Below are positions 11,216 through 38,632 of a stretch of 56,061 bases of DNA, piece after piece. Source of the stretch: Clostridia bacterium. Its GTDB lineage: Bacteria; Bacillota; Clostridia; Oscillospirales; CAG-272. The translations under genes and the position numbers were made by a program. The notes below the pieces were generated by a model. That model ran no database searches. It saw only the letters and a program-made list of their open reading frames with translations, and was not told where the DNA came from. The stretch is taken from contig JAFTCY010000139.1 in the NCBI GenBank assembly GCA_017454465.1, forward strand, positions 1 through 56,061. Reading direction: 5' to 3'. How positions within the stretch are numbered: position 1 is the first letter of the stretch; every line of letters starts with the position of its first letter.

Positions 11216-11983
11216 TTGATCGCCCTGTACATAATTCTCGGCATCCTTGCCTTCATACTTCTGCTTCTGTGCCTTATATGCTGCCTGTGCGCCAAGGCCA
11301 GGATCATTCTGAAGGATCAGTTCACGCTCAAAGTCGGAGCGGGTCCCGTAATGATCACGGTGGTGCCCGGGAAAGAGGAAAAGATAAAGGCGTCAGACTA
11401 CACCTACAAAAAGCATAAGAAACGCCTGGAAAAGGAAAAGAAAAAAGCCGAACTCAAAGCGAAGAAAGAAGAAGAGAAAAAGCTTAAGAAGAAAGCCGAG
11501 AATGCAAAGGAAGAGGAGAAGACAGGAAGCAAGCTGTCTTCCATCATGGATCTTGTTAAATTCGGTCTGGGAGAGCTGGGCACTCTGGCAAAAAAGGTCA
11601 GGATCAAAGTCAATGCCCTGCATGTCACGGCTTCAGGGGATGACGCCGCAAAGACAGCCCAGAACTACGGGATCCTGTCCGCTCTCATGAGCACATCCCT
11701 TGAGTTCCTGTCGAGCACATCGACTCTTAAGGACCCGAAGGACGGAACTATCTCCCTGTCAGCGGATTTTCTCGGCGAAAAGACCCGGTATGACGTGGAC
11801 ATTATATTCAGCCTGAGGATATTCCATGTGGTCATGACCGGCCTGAGGGCTTTGAAGATGTTCATAAAACAGAAAGCGTCAAAAGGCAAGCCGGACAAGA
11901 ACACCGACAATCTCAAGTACCATATCTTCGATCCCGAAGAAAAGACAAAGCGCGTTAAGGGAAGAAACAAAAAAGCCGGCTGA
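11216..11983 (+). CDS. DUF2953-like (YtfI-like) sporulation-associated membrane protein
   Basis: TTG start after AGGAAGTGAGG. It has an N-terminal TM, a K/E-rich linker and a conserved C-terminal part. Its position just upstream of ytfJ is typical in Firmicutes. Confidence 0.55.
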   Translation: MIALYIILGILAFILLLLCLICCLCAKARIILKDQFTLKVGAGPVMITVVPGKEEKIKASDYTYKKHKKRLEKEKKKAELKAKKEEEKKLKKKAENAKEEEKTGSKLSSIMDLVKFGLGELGTLAKKVRIKVNALHVTASGDDAAKTAQNYGILSALMSTSLEFLSSTSTLKDPKDGTISLSADFLGEKTRYDVDIIFSLRIFHVVMTGLRALKMFIKQKASKGKPDKNTDNLKYHIFDPEEKTKRVKGRNKKAG

Positions 11984-12047
11984 GCTTGCCGGGCAAAACA
12001 AGATAAATATATAAATCACTCTCAAATACCATAAACGGAGGCATATC

Positions 12048-12473
12048 ATGGCTGACAACACCAACAGACTCGGAGATCTCAACAGAGCTTCACTGGACTC
12101 CATCAAATCAATGCTGGACGCGAACACCATCGTCGGAGACCCCATAGAGACAAAATCCGGCACATGCATAATTCCCATCTCAAAGATCACTGTGGGATAC
12201 GCATCCGGCGGTCTTGATTTCGCAAAAAAAGACGCGGAGCAGAAACCCAACAATTTCGGCGGAGGCGGAGGGACCGGCATCACCGTGGCGCCTGTGGCTT
12301 TCCTTGTAATAGCTCCCAACGGCGAAGTCAACATGCTGAGCGTCAACACCAGCAACTCGCAGGCTCCCGCGGACACCGTGACCCAGGTCGTCGGACTTAT
12401 TGAAAAGTCTCCTGAGCTCATCGAGAGAGTCAAATCCGTATTTACAAAGAAGAACGAGGATAATTCGATCTGA
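12048..12473 (+). CDS. ytfJ: GerW/YtfJ family sporulation protein
   Basis: ...IIPISKITVGYASGGLDF...GGGGGTGITVAPVAFLVI... is characteristic of YtfJ/GerW. SD is GGAGG. Confidence 0.8.
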   Translation: MADNTNRLGDLNRASLDSIKSMLDANTIVGDPIETKSGTCIIPISKITVGYASGGLDFAKKDAEQKPNNFGGGGGTGITVAPVAFLVIAPNGEVNMLSVNTSNSQAPADTVTQVVGLIEKSPELIERVKSVFTKKNEDNSI

Positions 12474-12474
12474 C

Positions 12475-13203
12475 ATGGCGGACGTACGGCTTCAGAAGTT
12501 TCTGAGCGATGCCGGAATAATGTCCCGGCGGGCCGCTGAAAAAGCGATATCCGAAGGCAGGATAACCGTCAACGGATCGCCTGCCCTCACGGGAATGAAA
12601 GTGGATCCTGAAAAGGATACAGTTATCCTTGACGGAAAAAAGGTCACCCGTGATCCCTCCTGCGTATATATTGCGCTCAACAAGCCTTCAGGGGTCATCA
12701 CCTCCATGTCGGACGAAAAAGGCAGACCGACTGTCGCTCAGCTGGTCTCGGACTGCGGGAGAAGGGTATATCCCTGCGGAAGACTGGACATGTACTCGGA
12801 AGGGCTCCTTCTGCTCACTGATGACGGGGACGTGGCAAACAGGATAATGCATCCTTCCCACAGCATATCTAAGCAATATGCGGCGACTGTGACACGCGAG
12901 CTGTCAGAGGCGGAAGTAAGGGAGCTGTCAGTTCCTTTTGAACTTGACGGTTACATGCTCAGGCCTTTTGAGGTCTGGCTCGACGGATATCAGCATGACA
13001 TAAGCGGCAAAACATTTACAAAGCTGAGATTCACTCTCCACGAGGGAAGAAACAGGGAGATACGTAATATCTGCGCCCGTCACGGACTGAAGATAGCCCG
13101 TCTCACGAGGATATCCGTCGGAAAGATCACTCTTGACAGAATAGAGCCCGGAAAGTGGAGATACCTCAGCCAGGATGAAATCGACTATTTGAAAGGGATA
13201 TAG
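12475..13203 (+). CDS. rluB: 23S rRNA pseudouridine synthase, RsuA/RluB family
   Basis: S4 domain (RLQKFLSDAGIMSRRAAEKAI) and catalytic motif GRLDMYSEGLLLLTDDG. I chose the ATG at 12475; the track ORF extends upstream into ytfJ. Confidence 0.85.
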   Translation: MADVRLQKFLSDAGIMSRRAAEKAISEGRITVNGSPALTGMKVDPEKDTVILDGKKVTRDPSCVYIALNKPSGVITSMSDEKGRPTVAQLVSDCGRRVYPCGRLDMYSEGLLLLTDDGDVANRIMHPSHSISKQYAATVTRELSEAEVRELSVPFELDGYMLRPFEVWLDGYQHDISGKTFTKLRFTLHEGRNREIRNICARHGLKIARLTRISVGKITLDRIEPGKWRYLSQDEIDYLKGI

Positions 13204-13205
13204 GA

Positions 13206-13640
13206 ATGTACCAGATCCAGCCTGTAAGATCAAGGAAGCTTCAAAAGGAACTGGCCGAAAAGCTCGGCACGGAATTCGTTCCGCACACATATGCCATGTT
13301 CGCGGGAGAACTGGCTGACGACTACGCAACAGTGACTGAACTGATAGCCATGTGCCAGTTCACTTTCGGTGAAAAAGAGGCTGAGATCATGTCTGTGGGT
13401 ATCGCCGAAGGCCATGAGGAAGACGAGGCCGTCACCGTTCTCATAAGAGCCATGATGTCTCTGGTGAACAATGCTGAGATACCTGTCGTCTCCATAACCG
13501 GTGCCGTACTGTCCCCGGACAGGATCAAAAAGCTGGGATTCAGGCAAGTCCCCGGTCAGACGGACAAATGGGCGATAGATCTTGAGGAATTTTATAAGGC
13601 CCCCTGCGCTTATACCGCAGGGCAGAAACAGGAACAATAA
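13206..13640 (+). CDS. hypothetical protein (144 aa)
   Basis: The ORF starts 2 nt after the rluB stop. I recognised no motif. Codon usage looks like the neighbouring genes. Confidence 0.45.
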   Translation: MYQIQPVRSRKLQKELAEKLGTEFVPHTYAMFAGELADDYATVTELIAMCQFTFGEKEAEIMSVGIAEGHEEDEAVTVLIRAMMSLVNNAEIPVVSITGAVLSPDRIKKLGFRQVPGQTDKWAIDLEEFYKAPCAYTAGQKQEQ

Positions 13641-13674
13641 CGGTGCCGTGGAAACAGACACCGGATCTGAGATG

Positions 13675-13701
13675 ATCTCCCTGACCAACGATCAGGGAGA
13701 T
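13675..13701 (+). terminator. 10-bp hairpin (atctccctga/tcagggagat) with short T tract
   Basis: Perfect stem read from the sequence, followed by ttt. It is a weak candidate terminator for the + strand unit. Confidence 0.35.
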
Positions 13702-13706
13702 TTGCG

Positions 13707-13752
13707 AAAAAAAAGCAGACGCGGATCTTTTACCAGATCCGCGTCTTTTCGT
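13707..13752. terminator. bidirectional rho-independent terminator
   Basis: Perfect 11-bp stem agacgcggatc/gatccgcgtct (13717-13727 and 13736-13746), flanked by A8 upstream and TTTTCGTT downstream. It sits between the convergent genes ending at 13640 (+) and 13783 (-). Confidence 0.8.
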
Positions 13753-13782
13753 TATGCTGTTTTATCTTTTGGACAGGTGTTA

Positions 13783-16593
13783 TCAGGAGTGCTCGGAAAT
13801 ATATGTTCTCGCCCTGCCCGCGATGATCCTTGCCGTCTCCTCAGCGCTCTTTGTGCCGCCGAAGAAAGACGAAAGCTCATCCTTTATAATCTCCACAAGG
13901 CCCAGGTCGGTCCGTGCGACCATGGTAGCGCCTTTTACTATATCATAGGCCTGCTGTACCGCTTCCTCAGAGAACTGCACGTTCCTGGATGTCTGGTAGT
14001 TTATGTATTCCTCGGAATATCCGGATTCCTTCCACCAGTTCAGCGTCCACTCATCGATGTAGTCTTCTCCGCCCCACCAGTTATCCTTTGCCGTAGCGGC
14101 CTTGTTATCCATATATTCCTTATTCACGCAGAATCCCCAGTAATTGTTATAGAAGTCGTCATCTTCAAGAACGAATTTTATGAATTCCCAGGCCTGGTCT
14201 TTTGCTTTTGATCTGGCGCCTATGGCCATCTCGGTCTGGGGAACGATAATCGCCCCGTTGCCGGATCTGCAGGGATACCCGATCGCCGTTATATCCTTCG
14301 TGGCGAATTCCTGCTGCGCCTGCAGTATTGCGGTCATATCGTTCATATAGAGCAGTTCAAGAAGAGCCTTATCGTTGAAATACCTGAGCTGTTGCATTTC
14401 CTCGAACTGCCTGTATTTGTCCTCGTCGTAGCTGTCGCCCATCTGGCCGTAGAACTCTTCGTATATGTTCGTTTCCCTGCAGTTCTTCAGATATTTTATG
14501 AAATCGATGAATCCCTTGGTCTCAAATTCAGTTTCTCCCGTATCCCAGTTTACAAGGGAATTCAGCGCTCTCTGGAAGAAGATCTCCATGATCTCATTGC
14601 GGCTCTGCCCCCAGAAAGCCTCCATGCCCTCGGGCATCGTGCTCAGCAACTGGGTGAACTTTTCAAAAGTCCATCCGGGCTCTGTCCCGACGAACTTTGA
14701 TTTTGCGAACATGGTCTGTATGGAGAACGTAAGTATAAGCGAGTACATCTTTTCTCCCACTTTTGTGGCATCGAAGATGTTTGTAAGGTACTTGCTGCTG
14801 TCAAGAGTTGCGACATACCTTGAAATATCCTCGAATACTTTGTTCCTGTACAGGCTTTCAACGGGCATGTTTTCATTCATGAAAATAATGTCCGGGACCT
14901 TTCCTGTCGAAAGATCCTTATTGAACTGGTCATATCCGCCTCTCCAGTCCGTATCCGCGTCGTTGTATTTTTCGTAAGATTCAAGCTGAACCCTTACTCC
15001 GGTGTTTCTCTTGTTGAATCTTATCATGGAACGTACCAGGTTGTAGTCGTTGACAGCGGAGCCGATGGTGACGAGCACTTCTTCAGCCATATCCTCATCG
15101 GGGATCCGCTCATAGATCTCGACTGTCATCTTCTGGCTGGGATTCATGGGTTTCGCTATGCTGTCATAAACTATTCCGCCGCCGTATCTGTTGGATATGA
15201 AGCATACTCTTCCGTCGCTGAGTACTCCGGCAACGCTGCCGCCGAAATATTCCACGTCGCAGTTGATATAGTTGAGATATTCCGTCATCTGTCCGGTAGT
15301 CAAGTCATAGGCATTTATGCAGTCTGTGCCGTTCAGATATAGAACATTATCGTTGCCGCCGAGGAATCCGTAATAAGTGTTGCTGTCAAGGCCCTCCAGC
15401 TGCAGCGGCTCGACCTGGCCATTCACGGCGCGCTGGTATTTGATGTTCCCCATGTCATCGGAAGACATTATTATGAATCCCTTGCCCACGGACATTATAT
15501 TGTTTACCCAGCCGTCTATATCGGATTTTCCCACCAGGCTGCCGTCTTTGCCAATGAACAGGATGGAGGTATCTATCGTAACGGCAAGAGTGCCGTCCGA
15601 ATCATATGCCACCTGGTACAGCCATGTGTTCTGCATATCGAGCTTCAGGCTTTCAAACAACTCGGAAAGGTCCTTTGAATCCTTTATCTTGCCTGTGGAA
15701 AGGTCGATGGTATCGATGGTATACCAGTGCCTGTATTCGTAATCGTCGGTAATGTCTATCGGCTCGTCTATGTCATAACCGGTATCAGAAGGCTCCGAAA
15801 AGTCATCATTGGTCTCGGCTTCTTCAGTTACAATCTCTTCTTCTGTCTCAATTTCCTCTTTAGGTATTACGGGATAATCGATCTGACCTGATCCGTAGCG
15901 GTAGTATTCACGGAGCATCACAAGATCGCCGTCTCCGTTAACGAATATGTTGACCATGCTCGAGCCGCCGTTTTCGTTGCTCTGATCCTCAATGTCGATG
16001 TCGATCACCTTTGAGGTGTACTTTGCGGGCGAGTTCTTGTCAAGATCCGCCACACAGACGGATGGGACGTTTCTGTACTTCATGGTCCACTTGTCAGGCA
16101 GAAGCAGCGCGTTTTCGCTCGATCCTTCAGTGACCTCGTCAACATGCTTGTTCCAGAGATCCTCAGGCTCATCCGGTCCCCCGGTCTGCGCCGGTTTTGT
16201 GTCCACCGGCACATATGAGTCTTCTGCCGCGTATGTGCCATAGATTATCACTTCGTCATCAGGGTATTCCAAGTTGACTCCGCCGTTTTCCTGCCAGTAG
16301 TATCCCTTTCTCGTTTCCACTTCATTGCCGTCCGCGTCTATTATAGTCGTATAATCAGTGGAAAAAGTGAGATACAGAGCTGTGTCGGAGCAGAAAACGT
16401 TCTGGGTATATCCGATATCTTCCGGAATCTTTATCTCGGTAGCTCCGAACACATTGGTCCTTCTTGATTTCGGTGGCTCATCCTTTTTAGGACCTTCTCC
16501 TCCGTTATTGTTATTGCATCCTGCGGCTGTCATCATTGCGCCGAATATGAATAAAAAGGCGAGCAAAAGAGCCGTGATCTTTCTGAAATGCAT
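13783..16593 (-). CDS. 936-aa lipoprotein: N-terminal unknown module plus C-terminal extracellular solute-binding (ABC SBP family 1-like) domain
   Basis: Signal peptide with lipobox (LLAFLFIFGAMMTAAGC). The C-terminal ~450 aa look SBP-like (...VPDIIFMNENMP..., ...ITAIGYP...). SD is GGAGG. This is the last gene of the five-gene operon. Confidence 0.7.
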   Translation of the reverse strand: MHFRKITALLLAFLFIFGAMMTAAGCNNNNGGEGPKKDEPPKSRRTNVFGATEIKIPEDIGYTQNVFCSDTALYLTFSTDYTTIIDADGNEVETRKGYYWQENGGVNLEYPDDEVIIYGTYAAEDSYVPVDTKPAQTGGPDEPEDLWNKHVDEVTEGSSENALLLPDKWTMKYRNVPSVCVADLDKNSPAKYTSKVIDIDIEDQSNENGGSSMVNIFVNGDGDLVMLREYYRYGSGQIDYPVIPKEEIETEEEIVTEEAETNDDFSEPSDTGYDIDEPIDITDDYEYRHWYTIDTIDLSTGKIKDSKDLSELFESLKLDMQNTWLYQVAYDSDGTLAVTIDTSILFIGKDGSLVGKSDIDGWVNNIMSVGKGFIIMSSDDMGNIKYQRAVNGQVEPLQLEGLDSNTYYGFLGGNDNVLYLNGTDCINAYDLTTGQMTEYLNYINCDVEYFGGSVAGVLSDGRVCFISNRYGGGIVYDSIAKPMNPSQKMTVEIYERIPDEDMAEEVLVTIGSAVNDYNLVRSMIRFNKRNTGVRVQLESYEKYNDADTDWRGGYDQFNKDLSTGKVPDIIFMNENMPVESLYRNKVFEDISRYVATLDSSKYLTNIFDATKVGEKMYSLILTFSIQTMFAKSKFVGTEPGWTFEKFTQLLSTMPEGMEAFWGQSRNEIMEIFFQRALNSLVNWDTGETEFETKGFIDFIKYLKNCRETNIYEEFYGQMGDSYDEDKYRQFEEMQQLRYFNDKALLELLYMNDMTAILQAQQEFATKDITAIGYPCRSGNGAIIVPQTEMAIGARSKAKDQAWEFIKFVLEDDDFYNNYWGFCVNKEYMDNKAATAKDNWWGGEDYIDEWTLNWWKESGYSEEYINYQTSRNVQFSEEAVQQAYDIVKGATMVARTDLGLVEIIKDELSSFFGGTKSAEETARIIAGRARTYISEHS

Positions 16594-16606
16594 TTTCTGT
16601 CCTCCG

Positions 16607-17659
16607 TTAATGCTGTATTTCCAGGTTTCTTATCTTATGCTTTGCCGTGATCCGTCTGATTATCTTCCACGGAGAAAATCCTGACTTCCCGAGGAAGATC
16701 AGTGACAGCAGCAGACAGATCGCCGCCGCTATCAGGAGCACGAACTGAACAATGGTCAGGACCGACGCGTGATAGTCGTATATCCTTGCCTCGTTTTCCC
16801 AGTACGGGTACTCTACTTTGTTTTGACGTGTAAGTGAGTACTGAAGTTCCCCTGCCCGGTCCCATCTGTTTTTAATTGAGAACCGGTCGCTGACTTCACA
16901 GGCCGAGGCGGTCTGCTGGTCAAATGTCACCGCGCTGTCGAATATGTTTTTCGCGAATCCCTTCACTGCGTCCGGGAGAGCCGCCTCAAAGCATGTAAGG
17001 GACACCGATGACACTTTTGAGAAGCCTGCGTAACTCATATACGCTCTGAGTCCGGTGCCGTACGTGCTGCCGTAGGGTCCGCTGTCGCTTTCGGGGCTTG
17101 CTATTCCGGTCACCACGTAATCATAGTCGCCTACGGAAAGGGTCATGCCTATTATATTCTCAGCTCCGAAAAGCCTCCAGGCCAGATTCCTGTCAAGGAC
17201 TATTCCCATGGGATTCGAGTCATCGTTGAGATACGCGGTGCCGTACGTGTACTTCATGGGATGGAATACGAAGAAATCTCCCATTGTCACGGTCACGACA
17301 GCGTTCTCGGATGACTTGGGGCCCATCAGGCTGAGTTCCGAATGGCCGGACGCGGTCCAAGCCCAGGAACTTGCGTTCTCATGGGGAGTTATGGACGCTT
17401 CTATGAGTTTTTCATCCATGCTGTGGACCCAGTTCTCAACATCCTGTGTGCTGATGGCGCCCTCCTCGGAGTACAGCGCGATGGTCGCGTACCTTTCCGA
17501 GTCGGAGGACCACCTGTCGCCCGCGTGTATGAATTCCAGACGGCCCGAGAATCCTGAGATAACAAGCTCGATGACCCCGGCCGACGCGACGAGCGCCAGG
17601 CATAGCAGGAATATGATCCCGCATACCTTCAGCTTCTTTTTGTCCAAGTCTTTAAACAT
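16607..17659 (-). CDS. two-TM membrane protein resembling the MacB/FtsX-type periplasmic core domain only
   Basis: N-terminal TM (VCGIIFLLCLALVASAGVI), a ~270-aa extracytoplasmic part with ...NIIGMTLSVGDYDYVVTGIASP..., and one C-terminal TM (VLTIVQFVLLIAAAICLLLSLIFL). The FtsX TM3-TM4 segment is absent. Confidence 0.5.
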   Translation of the reverse strand: MFKDLDKKKLKVCGIIFLLCLALVASAGVIELVISGFSGRLEFIHAGDRWSSDSERYATIALYSEEGAISTQDVENWVHSMDEKLIEASITPHENASSWAWTASGHSELSLMGPKSSENAVVTVTMGDFFVFHPMKYTYGTAYLNDDSNPMGIVLDRNLAWRLFGAENIIGMTLSVGDYDYVVTGIASPESDSGPYGSTYGTGLRAYMSYAGFSKVSSVSLTCFEAALPDAVKGFAKNIFDSAVTFDQQTASACEVSDRFSIKNRWDRAGELQYSLTRQNKVEYPYWENEARIYDYHASVLTIVQFVLLIAAAICLLLSLIFLGKSGFSPWKIIRRITAKHKIRNLEIQH

Positions 17660-17674
17660 GTCGGCTTCTCCGGC

Positions 17675-19771
17675 TTACTTTTCTTCGGCGAGCCTGACCT
17701 GCTGCTTGTCCGAGATCGGGGATGTGGCGTTCGTAATGACGAACTCGCTGCCGGTCAGTCCCGTGACCGCGGACTGGGTGTCGTCAGACGCCACCACTGT
17801 TACAGCTATCCTTCTCGCGTTGTACTTCATTCCGAGAGGCGTGCTCTTGGACTCGACCACAAGCACGTATTTTCCGTCGTTGTCGACCCTTATGGCCGAA
17901 TTGGGAAGAACGTTCGAATAATACTGTGAACTGTCGCCTATCTGGAAGTTTACGGACTGTCCGTCATACACGTCGCCGGTGACAGACAGGGTGATTATCC
18001 TCTGCTTTCCCTGGGTCTGGGGGTCGGATCTTATGTTCGTGACCTGTGCCTCGATATTTGAATACCACCAGGAATTCACCACGGATACGGGGGATCCCAC
18101 CTGGACTTTTTTCGCCTCGTCCGCTGAAAGCGTGACCTCGCACGTATATCCTTTGTCGGTTATGTCAAGTGTGGCGACCGTGTTGCCGGATGAGACCTTG
18201 CTGCCCACAGTATTGTACAGGGTCACGACACGTCCCGACGTGGGAGCCACGATGTCGGATGTGGAAGGCGCGTTCTGATAGCTCTGGATCTTTGCCTGAA
18301 GCTCTTCCATCTGCTTTCTCTGCTCTTCCCTCTCGCGCTTCGTGCTTTCATTGGATCTGCCCTGCTGAGCCACGGTTATCTGATACTGGGTCTCAAGGGA
18401 TCTTATGTTGTCTTCCTGGCTCTTGATGGATTCCGCCAGGGTCTCCGGATCCTGGATGACATTGTTGTCTATCTTGCGCTGTGTATCCGCGACCTCCTTG
18501 TTCAGGTTCTTCTGGTCAGCCTGCAGCTGGGAGAGCCTGTTTTTGAGCTCAAGGAGCTTTGTCTCGTTCTGGGGCAGGTTTCCCACGTCCTCGTTTATCT
18601 TTGTCAGGTTATCGTATTCGGATTTTGCCGTATTGTATTTTTCCTGTGCCTCTCCGAGAGGTGCTCTTTTCTTTTCAAGATCCTTCTGGAGGTCGCTGAG
18701 CTGTCTGTTAAAGGCGTACAGCGTCAGCTCGTCCACGGTCTCCATGCCGATGATCTCCAGCTTGATATACTGTTCTTCAAGATTGCTCTTCCTGGCGGAT
18801 ATCTGGTCATAAATTGCGTCGATCTGATCTGCTATATCCTCGTTGTACCCTTCCTCGCTGAACAGCTGCAGCCTCAGTTCAGCCGCCTGCTCCTTCAGCG
18901 ACTCGATCTCGGAGTTCAGGGACTCGATCACCTGGGTGATGCTGCGGGCTTCCGTCATATCGGAGATCTGCTCTGACAGTTCGGAGATCTGCGCCTCAAG
19001 GCTGTCGCATGTGTTCTTGAGGGCAGTGTATTCCTCCTCGGCCGTGATGTAGTTCCACTGGGCGTCCTGCAGTCTTGTCACCAGTTCCTCGGAGCTCGTG
19101 CCTGACTCCTTCAGCAGCATCTTTGCCTGGGAGACAGCCGATTCGGTCTCGGAGATCTCGGCGGATACGCCCTCCATCTCCTCGTTGAGCTTTTCAAGGT
19201 CTTCCTGGAGCTTCTCAAGCTGTGTCTGAAGGATAGCCCCCGTGTCCTTGCCCTGGAGAGAAGCCTGGTATGTCTCCCTCATCCTCTGGAGACTGTCTTT
19301 CGCGTTTTCTATCTCTTTTCTGGCGCTCTCGAGCCTCTGGTTGTCCGACATGCTGTTGATGTTGTCGTCCAGGACTGAAAGGTCATACTGGTTCTTCAGT
19401 GAGTCGTACTGCTCTATGGCGGATTTCAGTTCGTCGCTGAATTCCTGGGAAACGGTCATGATCACCTGTCCCTCGCTGACCATGTCCCCCTCTCTCACGT
19501 ACACGGACAGGACTTTCCTTGTCTGGACCATGTCGGCATCCTTGACATTCTCATATACCACGTCAAGGGTGTTCCGGGATCTGATGGTGCCGGTGACCTT
19601 TACAGAGGAGGAAAGGGTCGTGTATTTCGGATACTGCGCCGAGACCTCAGGCAGGGACGCCTTCAGTATCGTATTGGAAAAGAACGTCAGTATCAAAAGA
19701 AGGATCAGGAATATAATGGCTATATTCTTTATAATGTCCTTCCGGCTGGTCTTCTTTTTTTCTTTTTCCAT
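17675..19771 (-). CDS. HlyD-family membrane-fusion (periplasmic adaptor) protein with very long coiled coil
   Basis: N-terminal TM, lipoyl-like hairpin (VYVREGDMVSEGQVIMTV...APTSGRVVTL) and ~400 aa of E/K/Q/L-rich heptad-like sequence between the two halves. I prefer the ATG at 19771 after AAAGGGTGAG; a GTG at 19780 would overlap the upstream stop. Confidence 0.75.
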   Translation of the reverse strand: MEKEKKKTSRKDIIKNIAIIFLILLLILTFFSNTILKASLPEVSAQYPKYTTLSSSVKVTGTIRSRNTLDVVYENVKDADMVQTRKVLSVYVREGDMVSEGQVIMTVSQEFSDELKSAIEQYDSLKNQYDLSVLDDNINSMSDNQRLESARKEIENAKDSLQRMRETYQASLQGKDTGAILQTQLEKLQEDLEKLNEEMEGVSAEISETESAVSQAKMLLKESGTSSEELVTRLQDAQWNYITAEEEYTALKNTCDSLEAQISELSEQISDMTEARSITQVIESLNSEIESLKEQAAELRLQLFSEEGYNEDIADQIDAIYDQISARKSNLEEQYIKLEIIGMETVDELTLYAFNRQLSDLQKDLEKKRAPLGEAQEKYNTAKSEYDNLTKINEDVGNLPQNETKLLELKNRLSQLQADQKNLNKEVADTQRKIDNNVIQDPETLAESIKSQEDNIRSLETQYQITVAQQGRSNESTKREREEQRKQMEELQAKIQSYQNAPSTSDIVAPTSGRVVTLYNTVGSKVSSGNTVATLDITDKGYTCEVTLSADEAKKVQVGSPVSVVNSWWYSNIEAQVTNIRSDPQTQGKQRIITLSVTGDVYDGQSVNFQIGDSSQYYSNVLPNSAIRVDNDGKYVLVVESKSTPLGMKYNARRIAVTVVASDDTQSAVTGLTGSEFVITNATSPISDKQQVRLAEEK

Positions 19772-19776
19772 ATCAC

Positions 19777-20733
19777 TCACCCTTTCACTGAAGCGGAATA
19801 TGCGATTCCCTCTATCAGGTAGTCCTCGCTGTACAGGAACAGAAGCACAGGAGGTATCATATATATAGTTGCCGTGGCAAATGCGATGCCCGTGTCGCCC
19901 TCATTGATCTTTGACAGGAACACCGAGAGTGGGTAGAGCTCCGTGTCCCTCAGCAGCACCAGAGGCTGCTCCACCATGTTCCAGTAGTCTATGAACACCA
20001 GGATCGCCACCGAGTACAGCGTGCCCTTGCACAGCGGGATGAATATCTTCCAGAAAATGGTCCATTCCCCTGCCCCGTCAAGCTTTGCCGCCTCCACCAC
20101 CGCCTTCGGTATCCTGCGCATGAACTTGGTCAGGATGAATACCGCGAACGGCGAGAAGATCCCTGGCAGGATTATCGCCCACCTCGTGTCTATCAGGGAC
20201 AGCCTGTCAAGCACCAGATAGTTTGGCACCAGGGTCACCTGGTACGGCATCAGCATCAGCACGATATACGCGAAGAAGATGAACGCCCTGAATTTCGTCT
20301 CCATCCTGGCAAAGGCGTAGGCTGCGCCCGACGCCACGGCCAGCTGGAATATGACTATGGGAACGACGTAGATAACGGAGTTCCAGAATTTCACAAGATA
20401 CTGCGGAGACTTGAAAAGCACCGTCTCATACTGCGAGAGGGAAACTTTCATGGGGATCAGCTGGAGGCTGACCTTTTCTCCGATGAACACGTGGCCGCCG
20501 TCCCCCGATATCCCCAGTCCCGTGAAGATCTTGCCGTAGTTGGCCGAGATCTCTGTGGTGGACATGAAGGAGTTGGTAAACGTAAATACCGTGGGAAACA
20601 GGAACAGGGCCGCGAAAGTAAGCAGGATCAGGAAAGCCAGGACAAGAAAGATGACCCGTCTGACTTTTACTTTTTTGCGCCTTTTGGGCCTTTCGGGAAA
20701 CAGGTCCCGGTTCAGGGTTATGTCGCCTGTCAT
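19777..20733 (-). CDS. carbohydrate ABC transporter permease (MalG/UgpE-like)
   Basis: Six-TM pattern and EAA loop ...EAAKLDGAGEWTIFWKIFIPL.... ATGA overlap with the upstream permease. Confidence 0.9.
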   Translation of the reverse strand: MTGDITLNRDLFPERPKRRKKVKVRRVIFLVLAFLILLTFAALFLFPTVFTFTNSFMSTTEISANYGKIFTGLGISGDGGHVFIGEKVSLQLIPMKVSLSQYETVLFKSPQYLVKFWNSVIYVVPIVIFQLAVASGAAYAFARMETKFRAFIFFAYIVLMLMPYQVTLVPNYLVLDRLSLIDTRWAIILPGIFSPFAVFILTKFMRRIPKAVVEAAKLDGAGEWTIFWKIFIPLCKGTLYSVAILVFIDYWNMVEQPLVLLRDTELYPLSVFLSKINEGDTGIAFATATIYMIPPVLLFLYSEDYLIEGIAYSASVKG

Positions 20734-21752
20734 TCTTCAAGCCCCCTTCCCACGCGGCTGTCGACCAGCAGCAGTATCGAGATTATAGCTATCATTATGA
20801 GGGAGAGAACGATGGCGGCGCTTGAAAGCTTCTGGTAGTCGAAGCGCCCGAAAGTATTGTTCATGAAATGCTGCAGCGTATACATGGCTTCATAGGGATA
20901 GTCGCCCGTGAGCAGGTATACCTCCCTGAACACCTTGAATGAGTTGATCAGGGACATGATCGTAACGAATGATATGGTGGAAGCCAGATATCTCAGTTTT
21001 ATGGAGAAGAAGCGCCTCACGCTGCTGCAGCCGTCGAGCATGGCCACTTCTATTATATCCTTCGGTATGGCGGACAGCGCCGACATGAACATTATCATAT
21101 TGTATCCGATGTTTTTCCAGAGGAACAGTAGCACCACGATGATAATGCCGTAATCGCTCTTGAACCACTCCACCGACGTGCCTCCGAACTGCTGTACCAG
21201 TTCGTTCACCACTCCGTGATAGTCGAACAGCACCTGCCAGATAAGGATGACTGACGCGGCAGGGACGATCATCGGGCTCAGAAAGATAGTCCTGAACGTG
21301 CTCTTTAATGGAATGTTCGACTCAAGGAGCATTCCGAGAAGCAGCGGGATTATGACCACCAGGGGAACGGAAATGAGGGAAAAGATCCCGGTATTCCTCA
21401 AAGCCAGCCTGAACGCGCTGTTTTCGAACAGGGCCGCGAAATTCTCGAATCCCACGAAGTCGTAGTTTGTGTTGTCACTTACGAAAGCATATACGATGAC
21501 GGCTATAAAAGGCAGCACAAAAAAGACCAAAACGCCCAAAAGAGACGGGGTCATAAACACGATGGTGTTCCTGATCTCCCGGCGTTCCCGTTTTGATCTT
21601 TTCATGAGTTTTCTGTCTTCAGCCTGCTGCGCCCGCTGAAGGCGTTTCATCTCGCTTCTGTCTGCTGTTCTGTTCATAAGTGACCGGTCAGATATGTCTT
21701 CTTCTGTTTTTTCTTCTTTTGACGTGTGTTGTCCCGAAAAGTTCCGGACCAT
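20730..21752 (-). CDS. sugar ABC transporter permease (MalF/UgpA-like); start codon uncertain
   Basis: EAA loop ...EVAMLDGCSSVRRFFSIKLRYL.... The longest ORF adds a ~60-aa highly charged N-terminus. Alternative in-frame ATGs lie at 21677, 21650 and 21605, and none has a strong SD. Confidence 0.85.
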   Translation of the reverse strand: MVRNFSGQHTSKEEKTEEDISDRSLMNRTADRSEMKRLQRAQQAEDRKLMKRSKRERREIRNTIVFMTPSLLGVLVFFVLPFIAVIVYAFVSDNTNYDFVGFENFAALFENSAFRLALRNTGIFSLISVPLVVIIPLLLGMLLESNIPLKSTFRTIFLSPMIVPAASVILIWQVLFDYHGVVNELVQQFGGTSVEWFKSDYGIIIVVLLFLWKNIGYNMIMFMSALSAIPKDIIEVAMLDGCSSVRRFFSIKLRYLASTISFVTIMSLINSFKVFREVYLLTGDYPYEAMYTLQHFMNNTFGRFDYQKLSSAAIVLSLIMIAIISILLLVDSRVGRGLEE

Positions 21753-21772
21753 TATATATTAAACCCGTATTC

Positions 21773-21801
21773 ATTATATCTTTTTTTATCTTTTATGTGT
21801 A
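21773..21801 (-). promoter_or_regulatory. candidate promoter of the five-gene operon (TACACA-17-TATAAT)
   Basis: On the minus strand, tataat (+ coords 21773-21778) and tacaca (21796-21801) are separated by 17 nt. Confidence 0.3.
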
Positions 21802-21821
21802 GGATTTGCCTTTTTTCCGCC

Positions 21822-22559
21822 TTATATATGCCATCCGTCAGCTCCGGCTTTCTCCAGAGCTCCGATCACCCTTTTGCACACGCCTTTCGACTCTCTTTCC
21901 TTTTCCCTGAGAAACTCATGCGCGGCTTCCCGCTCGGTATTTCCGTTCTCGGGACAGGTGCTCGCGACCACAGGCAGCCCGGCTTTTTTGGCAAAGCTGC
22001 GGATCAGCTTCTCGCTTGTGTAAATAAAGGGACGGATCACGGATATCCCGTTGTCCGGGTAGTATGTCACAGGGCAGAAGCTGCCGAAAGTCCCTTCGTA
22101 GAGCAGCCTCAGAAGCGCTGTTCCCGCCGCGTCCTCCATGTGATGGCCCAGGGCGATCTTGTTGCACCCGATGCGCATGGCCTCGGAGTTGAGAGCCCCT
22201 CTTCTCAGGGTGGCGCACAGGGAGCAGGGCCTCTTTTCCTTTTTTTCCTCGAATACTATCGAATATATCTCCGTATCCACCACGCTGTATTCCACATCAA
22301 GGTCCCCTGCCAGCTCCCTGACTTTGTCAAATGACACCGGATCCGGAAAGCCGACATTGACGGAAACGGCCTTAAGGCTGAACCGCTTCGGGTAGAACTT
22401 CCGCATCTCCGCCAGGGCGCACAGAAGCGCCAGCGAGTCTTTTCCGCCGGAGACTCCCACCGCGACCCGGTCACCCTCTTCGATCATGGAATAGTGCTGC
22501 ATGGCGCGCCGGGCTCCGGACATGAGCTGCTGCAGCTCCTTTGCGGCCGCCCCTGTCAT
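21822..22559 (-). CDS. PP-loop ATP pyrophosphatase, TtcA-family tRNA thiolase-like
   Basis: PP-loop SGGKDS, CxxC (CSLCATLRRG) and ...ALGHHMEDA.... ATGA overlap with the trmD stop. Confidence 0.7.
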   Translation of the reverse strand: MTGAAAKELQQLMSGARRAMQHYSMIEEGDRVAVGVSGGKDSLALLCALAEMRKFYPKRFSLKAVSVNVGFPDPVSFDKVRELAGDLDVEYSVVDTEIYSIVFEEKKEKRPCSLCATLRRGALNSEAMRIGCNKIALGHHMEDAAGTALLRLLYEGTFGSFCPVTYYPDNGISVIRPFIYTSEKLIRSFAKKAGLPVVASTCPENGNTEREAAHEFLREKERESKGVCKRVIGALEKAGADGWHI

Positions 22560-23278
22560 GATCGCTCCTCTTCCGGAGGATCCTTCATCTCAAGCAGATC
22601 AGGTCTCTTTTCGCGTGTCTTCTCAAGGGCTGCCTCAGCCCGCCATTTTTCGATGTTGGCGTGGTGTCCGCTTATAAGGACCTCAGGCACCTCCCTGCCC
22701 ATCCATACCGGCGGCCTGGTATACTGGGGATACTCAAGCACCCCGTCCTCAAAGCTCTCCTTCTCGTAGCATTCGGGCTCCGACAGGACGCCGTCGCAAA
22801 GTCTTCCCACGGCGTCCGCAACGAGGCAGGCCGGGATCTCTCCACCCGTCAGAACGAAATCGCCTATCGAGATCTCTTCATCAACTATCTCGTCAATGAG
22901 CCGCTGGTCCACGCCTTCGTAGTGTCCGCACAGCAGCGTAATCTCCTTCTTTTTCGCCAGTCTTTTGGCGTCTTCCTGAGTAAAGACTTTCCCCGCCGGG
23001 GACATGTAGATGACGTACGGCTCTTCGTCCTCCGTTTCGCTCCGGAGGCTGTCTCTCACCGCCTCATAGCATCTGTAGATCGGAGGGGCCGCCATGAGCA
23101 TTCCTTTTCCTCCCCCGTAGGGAGTGTCATCCACCCTTCTGTGCTTGTCCTCGGAATAATCCCTTATGTTATATGTCCTGATATCGAGCTTGCCGGCTTT
23201 TCTGGCCCGTCCGATTATGCTTTCAGACAGAACATAGTCCACGAATTCCGGGAAAAGGGTCATGATATCTATTCTCAT
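22556..23278 (-). CDS. trmD: tRNA (guanine37-N1)-methyltransferase
   Basis: MRIDIMTLFPEF..., ...DDTPYGGGKGM..., ...LLCGHYEGVDQR... are canonical TrmD. Confidence 0.95.
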   Translation of the reverse strand: MRIDIMTLFPEFVDYVLSESIIGRARKAGKLDIRTYNIRDYSEDKHRRVDDTPYGGGKGMLMAAPPIYRCYEAVRDSLRSETEDEEPYVIYMSPAGKVFTQEDAKRLAKKKEITLLCGHYEGVDQRLIDEIVDEEISIGDFVLTGGEIPACLVADAVGRLCDGVLSEPECYEKESFEDGVLEYPQYTRPPVWMGREVPEVLISGHHANIEKWRAEAALEKTREKRPDLLEMKDPPEEERS

Positions 23279-23802
23279 CTGGTCTCCCTCATTCCCTCTA
23301 TGAGCCGGACATATATGCCGGCGCCCTCTCCCTCGGGAACGATGCGTTTTATGAACTCACCGACCACCGGTATCATGAAGGTGCCGCCGTTCACGTCCTC
23401 CACCACATATATCTCCCGGCCGGCCGGCGAGATGACCTCTGAAAGCGTGCCTGTCTTCTCTCCGCTCTCCTCATCTATCACGTCAAGGCCGATTATGTCA
23501 GCAACGAAGACTCCGCCTTTTTTCAGCTTTATGTCCTCCCTGTCGCAGAAGAACACTGTCCCCTTGAAAGGTATGGCCTGCTCCACGGTATCAAGGTCAT
23601 GGAAGGAGACCAGGACCATGTTCTTCTGGACCGACGCGGCCCTGACTCTCATGGGAACGAACTCTCCCGCCCTGTTCTTTATATACAGCGTGCGGAGCTT
23701 CGCAAGGGTCTCCGGCGTGTCGCAGTATGACTCGAGCCTCAGCGTCCCCCTTATTCCGTGGGTGCTGACCGCTTTTCCGCACTCAAGATATTTCTGTTTC
23801 AA
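23275..23802 (-). CDS. rimM: 16S rRNA processing protein RimM
   Basis: ...GKAVSTHGIRGTLRL... RimM N-terminus plus a PRC barrel. The stop overlaps the trmD start. Confidence 0.9.
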   Translation of the reverse strand: MKQKYLECGKAVSTHGIRGTLRLESYCDTPETLAKLRTLYIKNRAGEFVPMRVRAASVQKNMVLVSFHDLDTVEQAIPFKGTVFFCDREDIKLKKGGVFVADIIGLDVIDEESGEKTGTLSEVISPAGREIYVVEDVNGGTFMIPVVGEFIKRIVPEGEGAGIYVRLIEGMRETR

Positions 23803-23854
23803 GTCTATTTCCCCATCTTTCTAAGAGAAAACCCCGGATTCCGGGAACCGAGGT

Positions 23855-24799
23855 CTATTCTGGTCTTTTGTCTGTTTTTTCTGGGCCGGACAGATAAGAC
23901 GCCAGCATGCAGAAATCCGCCGCTGACAGTTTTTCGCCCCGTATATCCGGCCTGAATCCGGCCTTCTCAAGGGCGTCTGTCACGTCTTCCCTTGCGTACT
24001 TTGAGAGAAGCGCGTTTACAAGGGTCTTCCTTCTCATGCCGAATGCCAGCGATATGAGTTCCCTCACCCTGCCGTCAAACTCAGATATCCGGTCCGGACT
24101 GCCGGGGGCGCCGGGAAACTTCCTGATCCCTTCATGGGGCCTGAACATCACCACTGAAGATGTGACCTTCGGCGGAGGCATGAAATTGCCTGGTGACACG
24201 TCGAACAGTTTTTCCACGTCCGCCCTGAGGGCTATGGACGCCGTGATCGCTCCGTAATCGGGGGATCCTGCTTTCGCCGCCAGTCTCCTCGCCACCTCGG
24301 TCTGGACCATGAATGTCATGAACGCAAGGGGCATGGGTCCTGCCGGATCGAAGGATTCCATTATCTTCATTATCACAGGCGACGTTATATAGTAAGGCAG
24401 GTTCGCGCATATGCCCACCGTTCCCCCGCCGCGGATCAGGTCCGAAAAATGATCGCTGATAAACGCTGGAAGATCCGTCTTGAGGAAATCCCCTTCCACC
24501 ACCGTGACGTTCCGGTACTCCCCGAGGACCTCCCCCAAAAGGGGTATAAGGCCTCTGTCAAGCTCCACCGCCACCACCCGGTCAAATTCCTGAGCCAGGA
24601 ACTGGGTAAGGGCCCCGGCACCGGGACCGATCTCTATGACTCCGCATGGAGAGCCGGCACGGCTCACCGCCTCACGGGCGATCCGCTCCGGGACCGACGG
24701 GTTTATGAGGAAATTCTGTCCGAAGGACTTTTTGGTGCCGACGGAATACTTTTCCATCAGCTCCCGCACAGTCCTCATATTGCAAAGGTCATAGTACAT
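23855..24799 (-). CDS. rsmA: 16S rRNA (adenine1518/1519-N6)-dimethyltransferase
   Basis: KKSFGQNFL and SAM motif VIEIGPGAGALT. It starts 2 nt after the upstream stop. Confidence 0.9.
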   Translation of the reverse strand: MYYDLCNMRTVRELMEKYSVGTKKSFGQNFLINPSVPERIAREAVSRAGSPCGVIEIGPGAGALTQFLAQEFDRVVAVELDRGLIPLLGEVLGEYRNVTVVEGDFLKTDLPAFISDHFSDLIRGGGTVGICANLPYYITSPVIMKIMESFDPAGPMPLAFMTFMVQTEVARRLAAKAGSPDYGAITASIALRADVEKLFDVSPGNFMPPPKVTSSVVMFRPHEGIRKFPGAPGSPDRISEFDGRVRELISLAFGMRRKTLVNALLSKYAREDVTDALEKAGFRPDIRGEKLSAADFCMLASYLSGPEKTDKRPE

Positions 24800-27118: not shown

Positions 27119-28399
27119 TCAGTTTGCTGATGTCTTTCTGTATTTTGAATAAAGCTGTGTGCCCTTGCTGGATGTGTAATCGAAGAAGGATTCCACGGTC
27201 TCAGCCGCCGGATGGTAGCTGCAGGGGCAGATTATGACTTTCTTTTCATATCTCAGGGAGGCTTTCACCAGATCATATATCTCGTAGAAATCCTCGATGA
27301 CAAAATTGCTTTCCACAATGGAATCGTACGGTTCGGTCAGCCCCTCGTTGGCCGCCCCCACCGCGGGGTAGAGAACGAAATAGTCTCCGTACTGTGTGGT
27401 CCCCCTGGGGTTCGTCACGGCGTTGGCCATGTTTTCCATGTCGTACCAGCGGTTGCTGGTGGTAAGCAGCTGGATCAGGGTGCATTTCAGGGTGTATTCG
27501 TTAAGGGACGCCAGATTCTCATAGTACCTGCTGGCCGCGCTGATGGCGTATCCCTGCTTCTCGCTGAGTTCGGAAGAACTGTCTTCCCTGGCGGAAAGCA
27601 CATCGTAGAGCACGTCGCCGCTCAGGTTCACATACCCCGCCGACAGAACGAACTGGTTCGCCCTCTTGACCGTTCTCCTGGTGCCGCTCTCGGGGTCTGT
27701 TTCCTCTATGTCCTTCTGGGACTTGAACGTGTTGTATATCCCGTCGTTGTATATCGTAAGGGGAAGGTCTATCCCCACGGTGTTTGTCAGCTGCACGAAC
27801 TCGTCCAGGTTGTACCCGTTCACAAGGAAGGTATAGTCTATGCTGCACCCGGTTATCGAGTAGACATACTGGGAGATCTTGTCCATTCCGAAAAGCGCAA
27901 GAGCCTCGCCCAGGGATTTGTATCCGAATTCCGTTGAGACTCTGATCTTCGGGGAGATATATGAATACACCACTTCCTCATTTTCCTTGTCCACCCGTAT
28001 GAAGATGATGGAAGAGGCTCTCCAGTCCCTGTATTCCTTTGAAAGGTACCCCATCAGGCTCACCGGGTCCATGGCCGCCCAGTCCATGCTGTACATGGCG
28101 CTCATGGAAGGCTTGTAATCATAATACCTTTCCGGCCTGTAGTCTGATGTGACGAACAGCATGTTGAAGCTCTTGCCGTAGATCTCATCGGCAACTCCCG
28201 GATCGTCCGACCCGGTATCCGTGTCCGGATCTGTTTCCTTGGTCTCGTTGTTTATGATACTGTCAAGCTCTGTTCTCTCATCGGCCAGTATGTCACGGAT
28301 CGTCCCGGTGATCATTCTGGTGGCGAAAAAGGCTATCACGCCGAAGATCAGCAGGGCTATCAGAAGCGTTATGCCGAAGTTTTTCAAGGCAGATGCCAT
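27119..28399 (-). CDS. membrane-anchored extracytoplasmic protein, possibly a divergent LytR-CpsA-Psr (LCP) fold
   Basis: N-terminal TM (ITLLIALLIFGVIAFFA). ...FNMLFVTSDYRP... and ...IIFIRVDKENEEVVYSYISPKIRV... loosely resemble LCP core strands. SD is AAAGGAG. Confidence 0.4.
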   Translation of the reverse strand: MASALKNFGITLLIALLIFGVIAFFATRMITGTIRDILADERTELDSIINNETKETDPDTDTGSDDPGVADEIYGKSFNMLFVTSDYRPERYYDYKPSMSAMYSMDWAAMDPVSLMGYLSKEYRDWRASSIIFIRVDKENEEVVYSYISPKIRVSTEFGYKSLGEALALFGMDKISQYVYSITGCSIDYTFLVNGYNLDEFVQLTNTVGIDLPLTIYNDGIYNTFKSQKDIEETDPESGTRRTVKRANQFVLSAGYVNLSGDVLYDVLSAREDSSSELSEKQGYAISAASRYYENLASLNEYTLKCTLIQLLTTSNRWYDMENMANAVTNPRGTTQYGDYFVLYPAVGAANEGLTEPYDSIVESNFVIEDFYEIYDLVKASLRYEKKVIICPCSYHPAAETVESFFDYTSSKGTQLYSKYRKTSAN

Positions 28400-31767: not shown

Positions 31768-31778
31768 ATCAATCCACC

Positions 31779-38587: not shown

Positions 38588-38632
38588 AAAAAAAGGACAC
38601 CCGCCGTCACAAAAGACCGGCGGGCGCTTTTT
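38588..38632. terminator. shared hairpin terminator overlapping the 3' end of the minus-strand CDS
   Basis: A7, then stem cccgccg (38600-38606) / cggcggg (38618-38624), then cgcTTTTT. The right arm encodes the last residues (..APAGLL) of the 38607-40346 gene. Confidence 0.55.

Follow-up and report, generated by a model that had tools for sequence, protein, structure and literature searches.

Genetic linkage of an importer-type permease pair to a membrane-fusion adaptor, a free-standing MacB-type ectodomain protein and a giant binding lipoprotein in Clostridia

Contig JAFTCY010000139.1 of the Clostridia bacterium assembly GCA_017454465.1 (56,061 nucleotides; this whole stretch is hereafter called the window) carries five closely packed genes on its minus strand. 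They encode two importer-type permeases of the ATP-binding cassette (ABC) superfamily, an HlyD/MacA-type adaptor resembling membrane-fusion proteins (MFPs), a protein in which a MacB-type periplasmic core domain (PCD) is flanked by two transmembrane (TM) helices, and a giant lipoprotein that ends in a substrate-binding protein (SBP) domain. We class the unit as an ABC importer with unprecedented accessory subunits. That the five genes encode one conserved, scaffold-bearing envelope machine built around an SBP-dependent type I importer of the CUT1 group is a reading to which we give a little less than an even chance; a single assembly with a scaffold role is favored by the data but is not established. 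The assembly of the unit, its substrate and its direction of transport are matters that we infer.

MFPs and MacB-type ectodomains are textbook components of export systems, and the question of what such adaptors do in cells that lack an outer membrane is open. In the present unit, an adaptor and an ectodomain of the export type are tied by strict genetic linkage to the core of an importer and to a giant binding lipoprotein; the family amounts to hundreds of clusters from Clostridia that abound in the gut and rumen. Should all five proteins belong to one machine, adaptors would be able to serve uptake, and the unit would suggest how glycans that are large or excluded by the wall traverse a thick wall and an S-layer to arrive at transporters in the membrane. 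A cultured carrier, Lachnospiraceae bacterium AC2031, exists, so the question is directly testable.

Conservation and coupling of the five genes

In the order of transcription, the unit consists of permease 1 (20730-21752; 340 amino acids as called), permease 2 (19777-20733; 318 amino acids), the adaptor (17675-19780; 701 amino acids, with a GTG start), the PCD protein (16607-17659; 350 amino acids) and the giant lipoprotein (13783-16593; 936 amino acids), all on the minus strand. The first three genes overlap their neighbors by 4 nucleotides (20730-20733 between the permeases, 19777-19780 between permease 2 and the adaptor), and the remaining junctions are gaps of 15 nucleotides (17660-17674, adaptor to PCD gene) and 13 nucleotides (16594-16606, PCD to lipoprotein gene). 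The five packed open reading frames (ORFs) and their junctions, re-read here, fall at coordinates identical to those in a preliminary description of this DNA.

Two strict peptide patterns, run against a single genome for each GTDB species, returned 45 related loci. About 32 of these derive from Oscillospiraceae-like rumen and gut metagenome-assembled genomes (MAGs), with identities of 40-77%, and the other 13 are from Lachnospiraceae, with identities of 24-28%; among the latter are a cultured isolate (AC2031) and a MAG of Butyrivibrio. When the five window proteins were compared by BLAST with all ORFs of 51 loci, 29 loci proved complete, with all five components adjacent, and six further contexts agree, for a total of 35 out of 57. 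The remaining loci are cut by contig ends and retain contiguous subsets only, with no internal loss. Three gene orders occur: permease-permease-adaptor-PCD-SBP as in the window, SBP-permease-permease-adaptor-PCD, and an arrangement with an SBP gene at both ends. Three long contigs carry the same five genes in the window's order and, as in the window, beside rimM-trmD-(amidase_3)-ttcA. Conservation in relatives, which the preliminary description had left to be examined, is therefore clear, with the genes adjacent in every sufficiently long locus from two clostridial families. Chance adjacency is rejected, since the five genes stay together in three different orders despite a divergence to about 25% identity. 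Clustering of all ORFs flanking the related loci revealed no sixth conserved partner and no ATPase belonging to the unit.

In some Lachnospiraceae-type units, two giant SBP genes flank the permease-permease-adaptor-PCD core (locus L052, 3929-13406; L054, 4207-13690; L055, 4142-13678; L056, 910-10517). Duplicate SBPs of this sort are also a feature of nutrient importers with several specificities.

Identities between the Oscillospiraceae-like and Lachnospiraceae clades were determined region by region. The permeases are 59% (permease 1) and 62% (permease 2) identical, and the TM and juxtamembrane segment of the adaptor (residues 15-50) is 64% identical. The membrane helix of the adaptor is thus as constrained as the permeases themselves, which points to direct contact within the membrane. 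Elsewhere in the adaptor, values are 32% for the barrel/lipoyl N-terminal half, 37% for the C-terminal barrel and membrane-proximal domain, and 19% for the helical hairpin. The PCD protein is 27% identical in its ectodomain, 65% in the region of a YPYWENEAR motif (residues 284-296) and 14% in its TM helices. Such poorly conserved, anchor-like helices argue against a driven mechanotransmission element. The SBP domain of the lipoprotein is 26% identical and its N-domain 18% identical.

The PCD and SBP components are also joined covalently in two members of the PCD family, the fusion proteins P0131 (1089 amino acids) and P0172 (1131 amino acids). The topology of these fusions is consistent, in that TM2 ends in the cytoplasm and the chain is returned to the outside by the signal or anchor helix of the SBP. 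In P0172, this helix is an internal, non-cleavable TM anchor that lacks a cysteine.

Features of the individual components

Pfam matches reported for the five proteins all exceed gathering cut-offs. BPD_transp_1 is matched by permease 1 (1.5e-13) and by permease 2 (7.8e-12). Permease 1 is a CUT1 subunit of the MalF/UgpA/SugA type, matching the NCBIfam models UgpA (1.6e-28) and MalF (4e-17) and, in the PDB, MalF (8e-16) as well as SugA and AlgM1. Permease 2 is the counterpart of the MalG/UgpE/SugB/AlgM2 type; its NCBIfam matches are GlcU (4e-29) and MalG (1e-19), with a resemblance to UgpE in addition, and its best PDB match is AlgM2 (1.8e-21), followed by SugB and MalG. These closest solved relatives, MalFG, SugAB and AlgM1M2, are type I importers.

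Both permeases carry the MalF/MalG-type EAA loops that had been noticed previously, and the loops are conserved among 33-35 homologues. The EAA-type coupling loop of permease 1 (20991..21050, minus strand; residues 235-254, EVAMLDGCSSVRRFFSIKLR) has E235 and V236 conserved in at least 95% and A237 and G241 in at least 80% of 35 homologues. The loop of permease 2 is canonical (20032..20094, minus strand; residues 214-234, EAAKLDGAGEWTIFWKIFIPL), and its E-A-A and D-G-A residues are conserved in at least 95% of 33 homologues. Preservation of both loops implies that an ATPase still docks there. The first approximately 60 residues of permease 1 as called (21590-21752, minus strand) are highly charged and unconserved among homologues, and thus the true start may be a downstream codon. 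Alternative in-frame ATGs are present at 21677, 21650 and 21605, none with an obvious Shine-Dalgarno (SD) sequence.

The third protein was previously described as an MFP of the HlyD/MacA type, and matches to HlyD and RND_mfp models bear this out. Pfam detects HlyD_3 (4e-10, residues 510-611) and Biotin_lipoyl_2 (4e-9, residues 89-110), and NCBIfam detects RND_mfp (3e-15, covering residues 428-697) and type_I_hlyD (3e-14); against the PDB there is a weak match to MexJ. At the level of sequence and profiles all MFP modules are present, namely a TM anchor, a split lipoyl domain, a helical hairpin, a beta-barrel and a membrane-proximal domain. The N-terminal TM helix (19661..19732, minus strand; about residues 17-40) and the juxtamembrane stretch LTFFSNTI..SLPEVS form a segment that is nearly invariant in both clades, with I22, L31, T32, F34, S35, T37, L43 and V46 invariant in alignment A5.

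Between the lipoyl halves of the adaptor (residues 86-111 and about 505-540) lies a helical region of about 390 amino acids (18269..19444, minus strand; residues 113-504). Its glycine and proline breaks are arranged symmetrically about G311, with position 179 pairing with 445 and 227 with 400. This pattern suggests an antiparallel hairpin with a turn near G311 and arms of about 195 residues, which if fully helical would have an estimated reach of about 29 nm. Homologues of the adaptor range from 511 to 971 amino acids, their hairpins varying from about 200 to 660 residues with no conserved tip among them. A tipless hairpin of variable length fits a spacer rather than a docking device. The adaptor gene of locus L011 (8093-9994) contains a masked run, seen as X in the translation, inside the hairpin, and its apparent length of 633 amino acids is thus unreliable.

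The only Pfam domain in the PCD protein is MacB_PCD (1e-7), and a profile of its family matches the MacB periplasmic domain in the PDB (1.4e-5). In the AlphaFold2 model (predicted local distance difference test score, pLDDT, of 80), helices spanning residues 7-40 and 286-325 flank an alpha/beta domain. Foldseek aligns this model best with MacB (5gko, E 1e-12), gives TM-scores of about 0.6 with isolated PCDs, and also matches Spr0695, YknZ, YbbP, HrtB and LolC/E. No FtsX domain (PF02687) is matched in the protein, whose chain ends about 25 residues after TM2. Pfam, the structural model and Foldseek thus concur with the earlier view of this protein as TM1, PCD and TM2 without TM3-4. The N-terminus amounts to about 10 residues and passes into a single continuous helix (residues 7-40), with no coupling helix before TM1. 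Neither the unit nor the 56-kb window supplies a nucleotide-binding domain (NBD) for it. Lacking a four-TM FtsX domain and coupling to an NBD, the PCD protein does not qualify as a type VII transporter. The family signature YPYWENEAR (16784..16810, minus strand) sits where TM2 has its outer end; in it, P285, E288, N289 and E290 are invariant in alignments A1 and A3, and P285, E288 and N289 in alignment A4.

Close homologues of the PCD protein form 41 clusters, every one of 339-404 amino acids. With clusters counted at 50% identity, an exhaustive profile search recovered 674 clusters of PCD-only proteins at E<=1e-30; relaxing the threshold to E<=1e-10 raised the number to 977. With few exceptions, the top 150 match over their full length and measure 330-450 amino acids, and the nearest ordinary FtsX permease scores only 1.6e-6. 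Judged from these searches, PCD-only proteins are a large, discrete and unnamed family. The size and conservation of this family rule out that the PCD gene is a truncated pseudogene. Two other members have additional domains, each of which possibly reflects read-through in gene calling: in P0147, NTP_transf_3 and His_Phos_1 are fused ahead of the PCD protein, and in P0162 a HAD hydrolase domain follows TM2.

The giant lipoprotein begins with a signal peptide and lipobox (AAGC, Cys26), continues with an all-beta N-domain (about residues 37-488) and ends in a CUT1 sugar-SBP domain (residues 489-936), of which residues 525-812 match SBP_bac_1 (2e-7). The AlphaFold2 model has a pLDDT of 74 overall and of 85-95 in the SBP half. 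In Foldseek searches, which this half dominates, the best match is CbpC (7x0o, 4e-13), and YesO, MalE and Lmo0181 are also found. The SBP-like C-terminal half recognized previously in this 936-residue lipoprotein is accordingly placed among CUT1 sugar SBPs. The modeled N-terminal half is all-beta and contains four-strand repeats, along with two acidic inserts that are disordered. These inserts (residues 99-165 and 234-286; 15736-16299, minus strand) are long, with pLDDT values below 50. Pfam searches of nine homologues gave only sub-threshold matches of propeller type (SGL, Reg_prop, SBBP) for the N-domain. The N-domains of the two clades are nonetheless homologous (hhalign probability 99.9%, E 5e-35), which marks the domain as a dedicated part of the system. 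Taken at the level of sequence, then, the unit has the permeases, EAA loops and SBP of a CUT1 importer, and its adaptor has the modules of an MFP.

SD-like sequences (GGAGG and GGAGAA) are present 5' of the SBP and PCD genes. A promoter-like element, TACACA-17-TATAAT (21773..21801, minus strand), lies 21 nucleotides upstream of the annotated first start codon. Proposed earlier as a promoter candidate, it gives the highest promoter-site score in the region 13400-22700, matching 10 of 12 positions, and is a consensus match only. The gap to the upstream neighbor, a PP-loop (TtcA-like) gene, is only about 69 nucleotides, so read-through from rimM-trmD-ttcA is also possible. Rfam searches of positions 13000-24000 found no riboswitch or leader RNA. 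The unit is closed by the strong bidirectional intrinsic terminator that had been predicted, which has a 12-base-pair stem (13717..13746) with seven G-C pairs and a T-run on each strand.

Proposed assembly and alternative explanations

In the machine that we consider, an unlinked ATPase of the MsmX/MsmK type would dock on the EAA loops and power uptake, and the SBP would deliver a carbohydrate-like substrate, probably a glycan, to the permeases. A precedent for such an ATPase is MsmK of Anaerocellum bescii, which is unlinked and shared by CUT1 systems in Clostridia (PMC12838199). The adaptor would use its invariant TM and juxtamembrane segment to bind the two permeases; the TM helix of MacA is needed to stimulate the ATPase activity of its transporter, MacB (PMC5985334). 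The barrel and membrane-proximal domains of the adaptor might seat on the PCD protein, as those of MacA do on MacB, and the hairpin would project about 15-50 nm through the periplasm-like zone, the wall and the S-layer, as either a strut or a conduit. The PCD protein would act as a static scaffold that holds the adaptor and tethers the giant SBP beside the permeases, and not as a driven mechanotransducer. The net function would be to capture a large or wall-excluded glycan, or to thread it to the membrane importer, in a thick-walled monoderm. In a stronger form of this proposal, the unit represents a new class of ABC machine, in which a type I importer is equipped with a type VII-style ectodomain and an MFP tube or strut spanning the wall and S-layer. 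We regard this form as rather unlikely. If it is true, the unit would be a Gram-positive counterpart of the nutrient conduits that run from outer to inner membrane in diderms, and its adaptor the first MFP that works for import.

Several observations weigh against a single importing machine. A six-frame motif scan of the 56-kb window found no ABC signature, in agreement with the absence of an ABC ATPase ORF noted previously, and the sole Walker A motif, at 5657, is Lon-like. Flanks of related loci contain only scattered, non-conserved ABC genes. In one sub-clade, MacB-type ABC genes are directly adjacent to the unit. No glycoside hydrolase (GH), sugar kinase or sugar regulator is consistently linked to it, and its position amid the housekeeping genes rimM, trmD and ttcA is unusual for a nutrient-specific CUT1 locus. 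Among the two PCD-SBP fusions, P0131 keeps an internal lipobox (LTGC) and could be a read-through artefact. Finally, in MacAB structures, a closed MacA-like hexamer sits over a PCD dimer. Beneath a closed hexamer, an SBP of about 50 kDa plus a propeller would find no room to approach the permease face, which makes a simple geometry that funnels onto the importer sterically doubtful.

Some of these observations would be accommodated if the unit were an extracytoplasmic mechanotransducer, in which ATP would drive the opening and closing of the MalFG-like pair, with the SBP as the ligand sensor that gates it, and this movement would be relayed to the PCD protein and adaptor without import of a nutrient. 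The work done outside the membrane would then consist of extracting, releasing or remodeling a wall or membrane polymer, much as FtsEX-EnvC/PcsB or LolCDE act. In type VII mechanotransducers, it is PCD folds that do the work (Foldseek; PMC5985334), the unit occupies a housekeeping position with no linked catabolic genes, and an Amidase_3 gene is a conserved neighbor in the Oscillospiraceae-like clade. An identity of 59-62% between families is, moreover, unusually strong for the permeases of a sugar importer. However, the PCD TM helices, which would have to transmit the force, are the least conserved part (14%), and there is no coupling helix before TM1. The SBPs are duplicated and fast-evolving, like nutrient receptors, and the locus has no conserved partner that is a hydrolase or a carrier. 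We judge this explanation unlikely.

A second alternative separates the operon into two systems, a CUT1 importer and an adaptor-PCD pair that serves a MacB-type pump encoded elsewhere. Gram-positive MFP genes are as a rule found together with homologues of macB (PMC5985334), and MacB-type genes do adjoin the unit in L048, L052, L053 and L057. Such neighbors are nevertheless absent from the window and from the other loci with 10-kb flanks, and the five-gene linkage outlasts rearrangement of gene order across a divergence to about 25% identity. Co-conservation of the adaptor TM segment with the permeases likewise speaks for a connection between the two halves, as do the PCD-SBP fusions, which tie the "efflux" half to the "import" half. 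A full MacB also owns a PCD, which would make a free PCD redundant. Division into two systems therefore seems to us quite improbable.

Still less probable is an exporter, or a hybrid working in both directions, in which the MalFG-like core and the adaptor tube expel a glycan, glycolipid or peptide through the wall and the giant lipoprotein serves as an outside acceptor or chaperone. All systems in which MFPs and PCDs are known to date serve export or extraction (PMC5985334). A long, tube-like hairpin would also suit an outward conduit. Yet no biosynthetic genes are linked to the unit, and the closest solved relatives of the permeases (MalFG, SugAB and AlgM1M2) import their substrates. To our knowledge, all BPD_transp_1/CUT1 transporters with a cognate family-1 SBP are importers.

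The notion that the PCD gene is the remnant of a degenerated FtsX permease and that the genes came together by chance, for which nothing speaks beyond the missing TM3-4, is scarcely credible and is refuted by the conservation data, given 674 clusters of stable length with invariant motifs, perfect synteny and a confident AlphaFold2 model.

Known systems and flanking genes

We compared the unit with CUT1 importers that rely on a shared, unlinked ATPase (MalEFGK2 of E. coli; AraNPQ-MsmX of B. subtilis; Athe_0595-0598 with MsmK of A. bescii). Like these, it has two BPD_transp_1 permeases with EAA loops and a family-1, sugar-type SBP lipoprotein, and like the systems with shared ATPases (PMC12838199) its operon contains no ATPase gene. 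It differs from them in that its SBP is double the normal size and has a family-specific all-beta N-domain, and in that its locus lacks a sugar regulator and catabolic genes. We know of no CUT1 system with an MFP or a MacB-type ectodomain subunit.

With MacAB-TolC, Spr0693-0694-0695 of S. pneumoniae and YknXYZ of Bacillus, the unit shares a TM-anchored HlyD/MacA adaptor and a MacB-fold PCD with two TM helices; its adaptor, like Spr0693 and YknX, belongs to a monoderm. Unlike MacAB, its PCD protein lacks TM3-4, the coupling helix and an NBD, and in the membrane the place of the type VII permease is taken by a type I importer pair. The hairpin is, by our estimate, several times longer than those of MacA and HlyD.

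The alginate "superchannel" of Sphingomonas sp. A1 (AlgM1M2SS with AlgQ1/Q2), whose AlgM2 is the best PDB match of permease 2, is a CUT1-type importer specialized for a polymer and provided with extra envelope components. The likeness would be a functional analogy only; the superchannel is Gram-negative and has a cell-surface pit, periplasmic SBPs, no MFP and no PCD. In FtsEX-EnvC/PcsB, as in the unit, a PCD-type ectodomain is found alongside a long coiled-coil partner (EnvC, PcsB), and in LolCDE a PCD-type ectodomain handles a lipoprotein; the PCD model matches the LolC/E domains in Foldseek. The ectodomains of FtsEX and LolCDE, however, are part of NBD-driven, four-TM FtsX-type permeases, whereas that of the unit is free-standing with poorly conserved TM helices.

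The PCD-only family, the N-domain and the combination are all without a model in Pfam and NCBIfam, and full-text literature searching found no published description of the five-part combination. The impression recorded earlier, that this architecture corresponds to no described system, thus holds for Pfam, NCBIfam and the literature searched. A match to "MACB" in PMC12838199 is a strain name.

Clustering of flanks revealed no conserved exporter near the unit, and MacB-type neighbors are confined to a sub-clade (L053, 1-6308; L057, 1-5896; L052, 1-3794, all upstream). In these three loci, the region immediately upstream encodes, on the strand of the unit, an FtsX permease and an Rce1-like CPBP protease. 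The FtsX permeases are 1113-1168 amino acids long and have a coiled-coil insert. In L053 and L057, the FtsX gene is preceded by an ABC_tran gene (234 amino acids), with a GntR gene also upstream, not on the same strand; the contig of L052 ends inside the FtsX gene, such that the corresponding ABC_tran/GntR region lies outside it. In L048, two MacB-type NBD-FtsX fusions (11391-16427) are directly downstream of the unit. Considered as candidates for a missing partner, the FtsX-type neighbors were judged non-conserved, being present in about five loci among those with long flanks.

In most Oscillospiraceae-like loci, a gene for an Amidase_3 protein (N-acetylmuramoyl-L-alanine amidase) is located between trmD and ttcA on the opposite strand (L001, 4236-4796; L003, 4053-4610; L005, 3799-4359). 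The window lacks this gene, and trmD and ttcA overlap there. In L001 alone, a single metagenomic contig, the unit is followed by genes for a GH38 alpha-mannosidase, a ROK kinase and a SIS-domain protein (13980-18193), a single and unconserved possible hint of a substrate.

Elsewhere in the window, no Pfam match was found for three ORFs of 255, 144 and 426 amino acids (11216-11983, plus strand; 13206-13640, plus strand; 27119-28399, minus strand). A gene for a YtfJ sporulation protein at 12048-12473 indicates that the organism is a spore-former. S-layer homology (SLH) domains are present in a GH3 glycosidase (29290-31782, minus strand) and in a transglutaminase-like protein (38607-40346, minus strand), from which it follows that the organism has an S-layer or a system for anchoring proteins to a secondary cell-wall polymer. 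The start of the GH3 gene is overlapped by 4 nucleotides by a gene for a GH29-type alpha-L-fucosidase (31779-33149).

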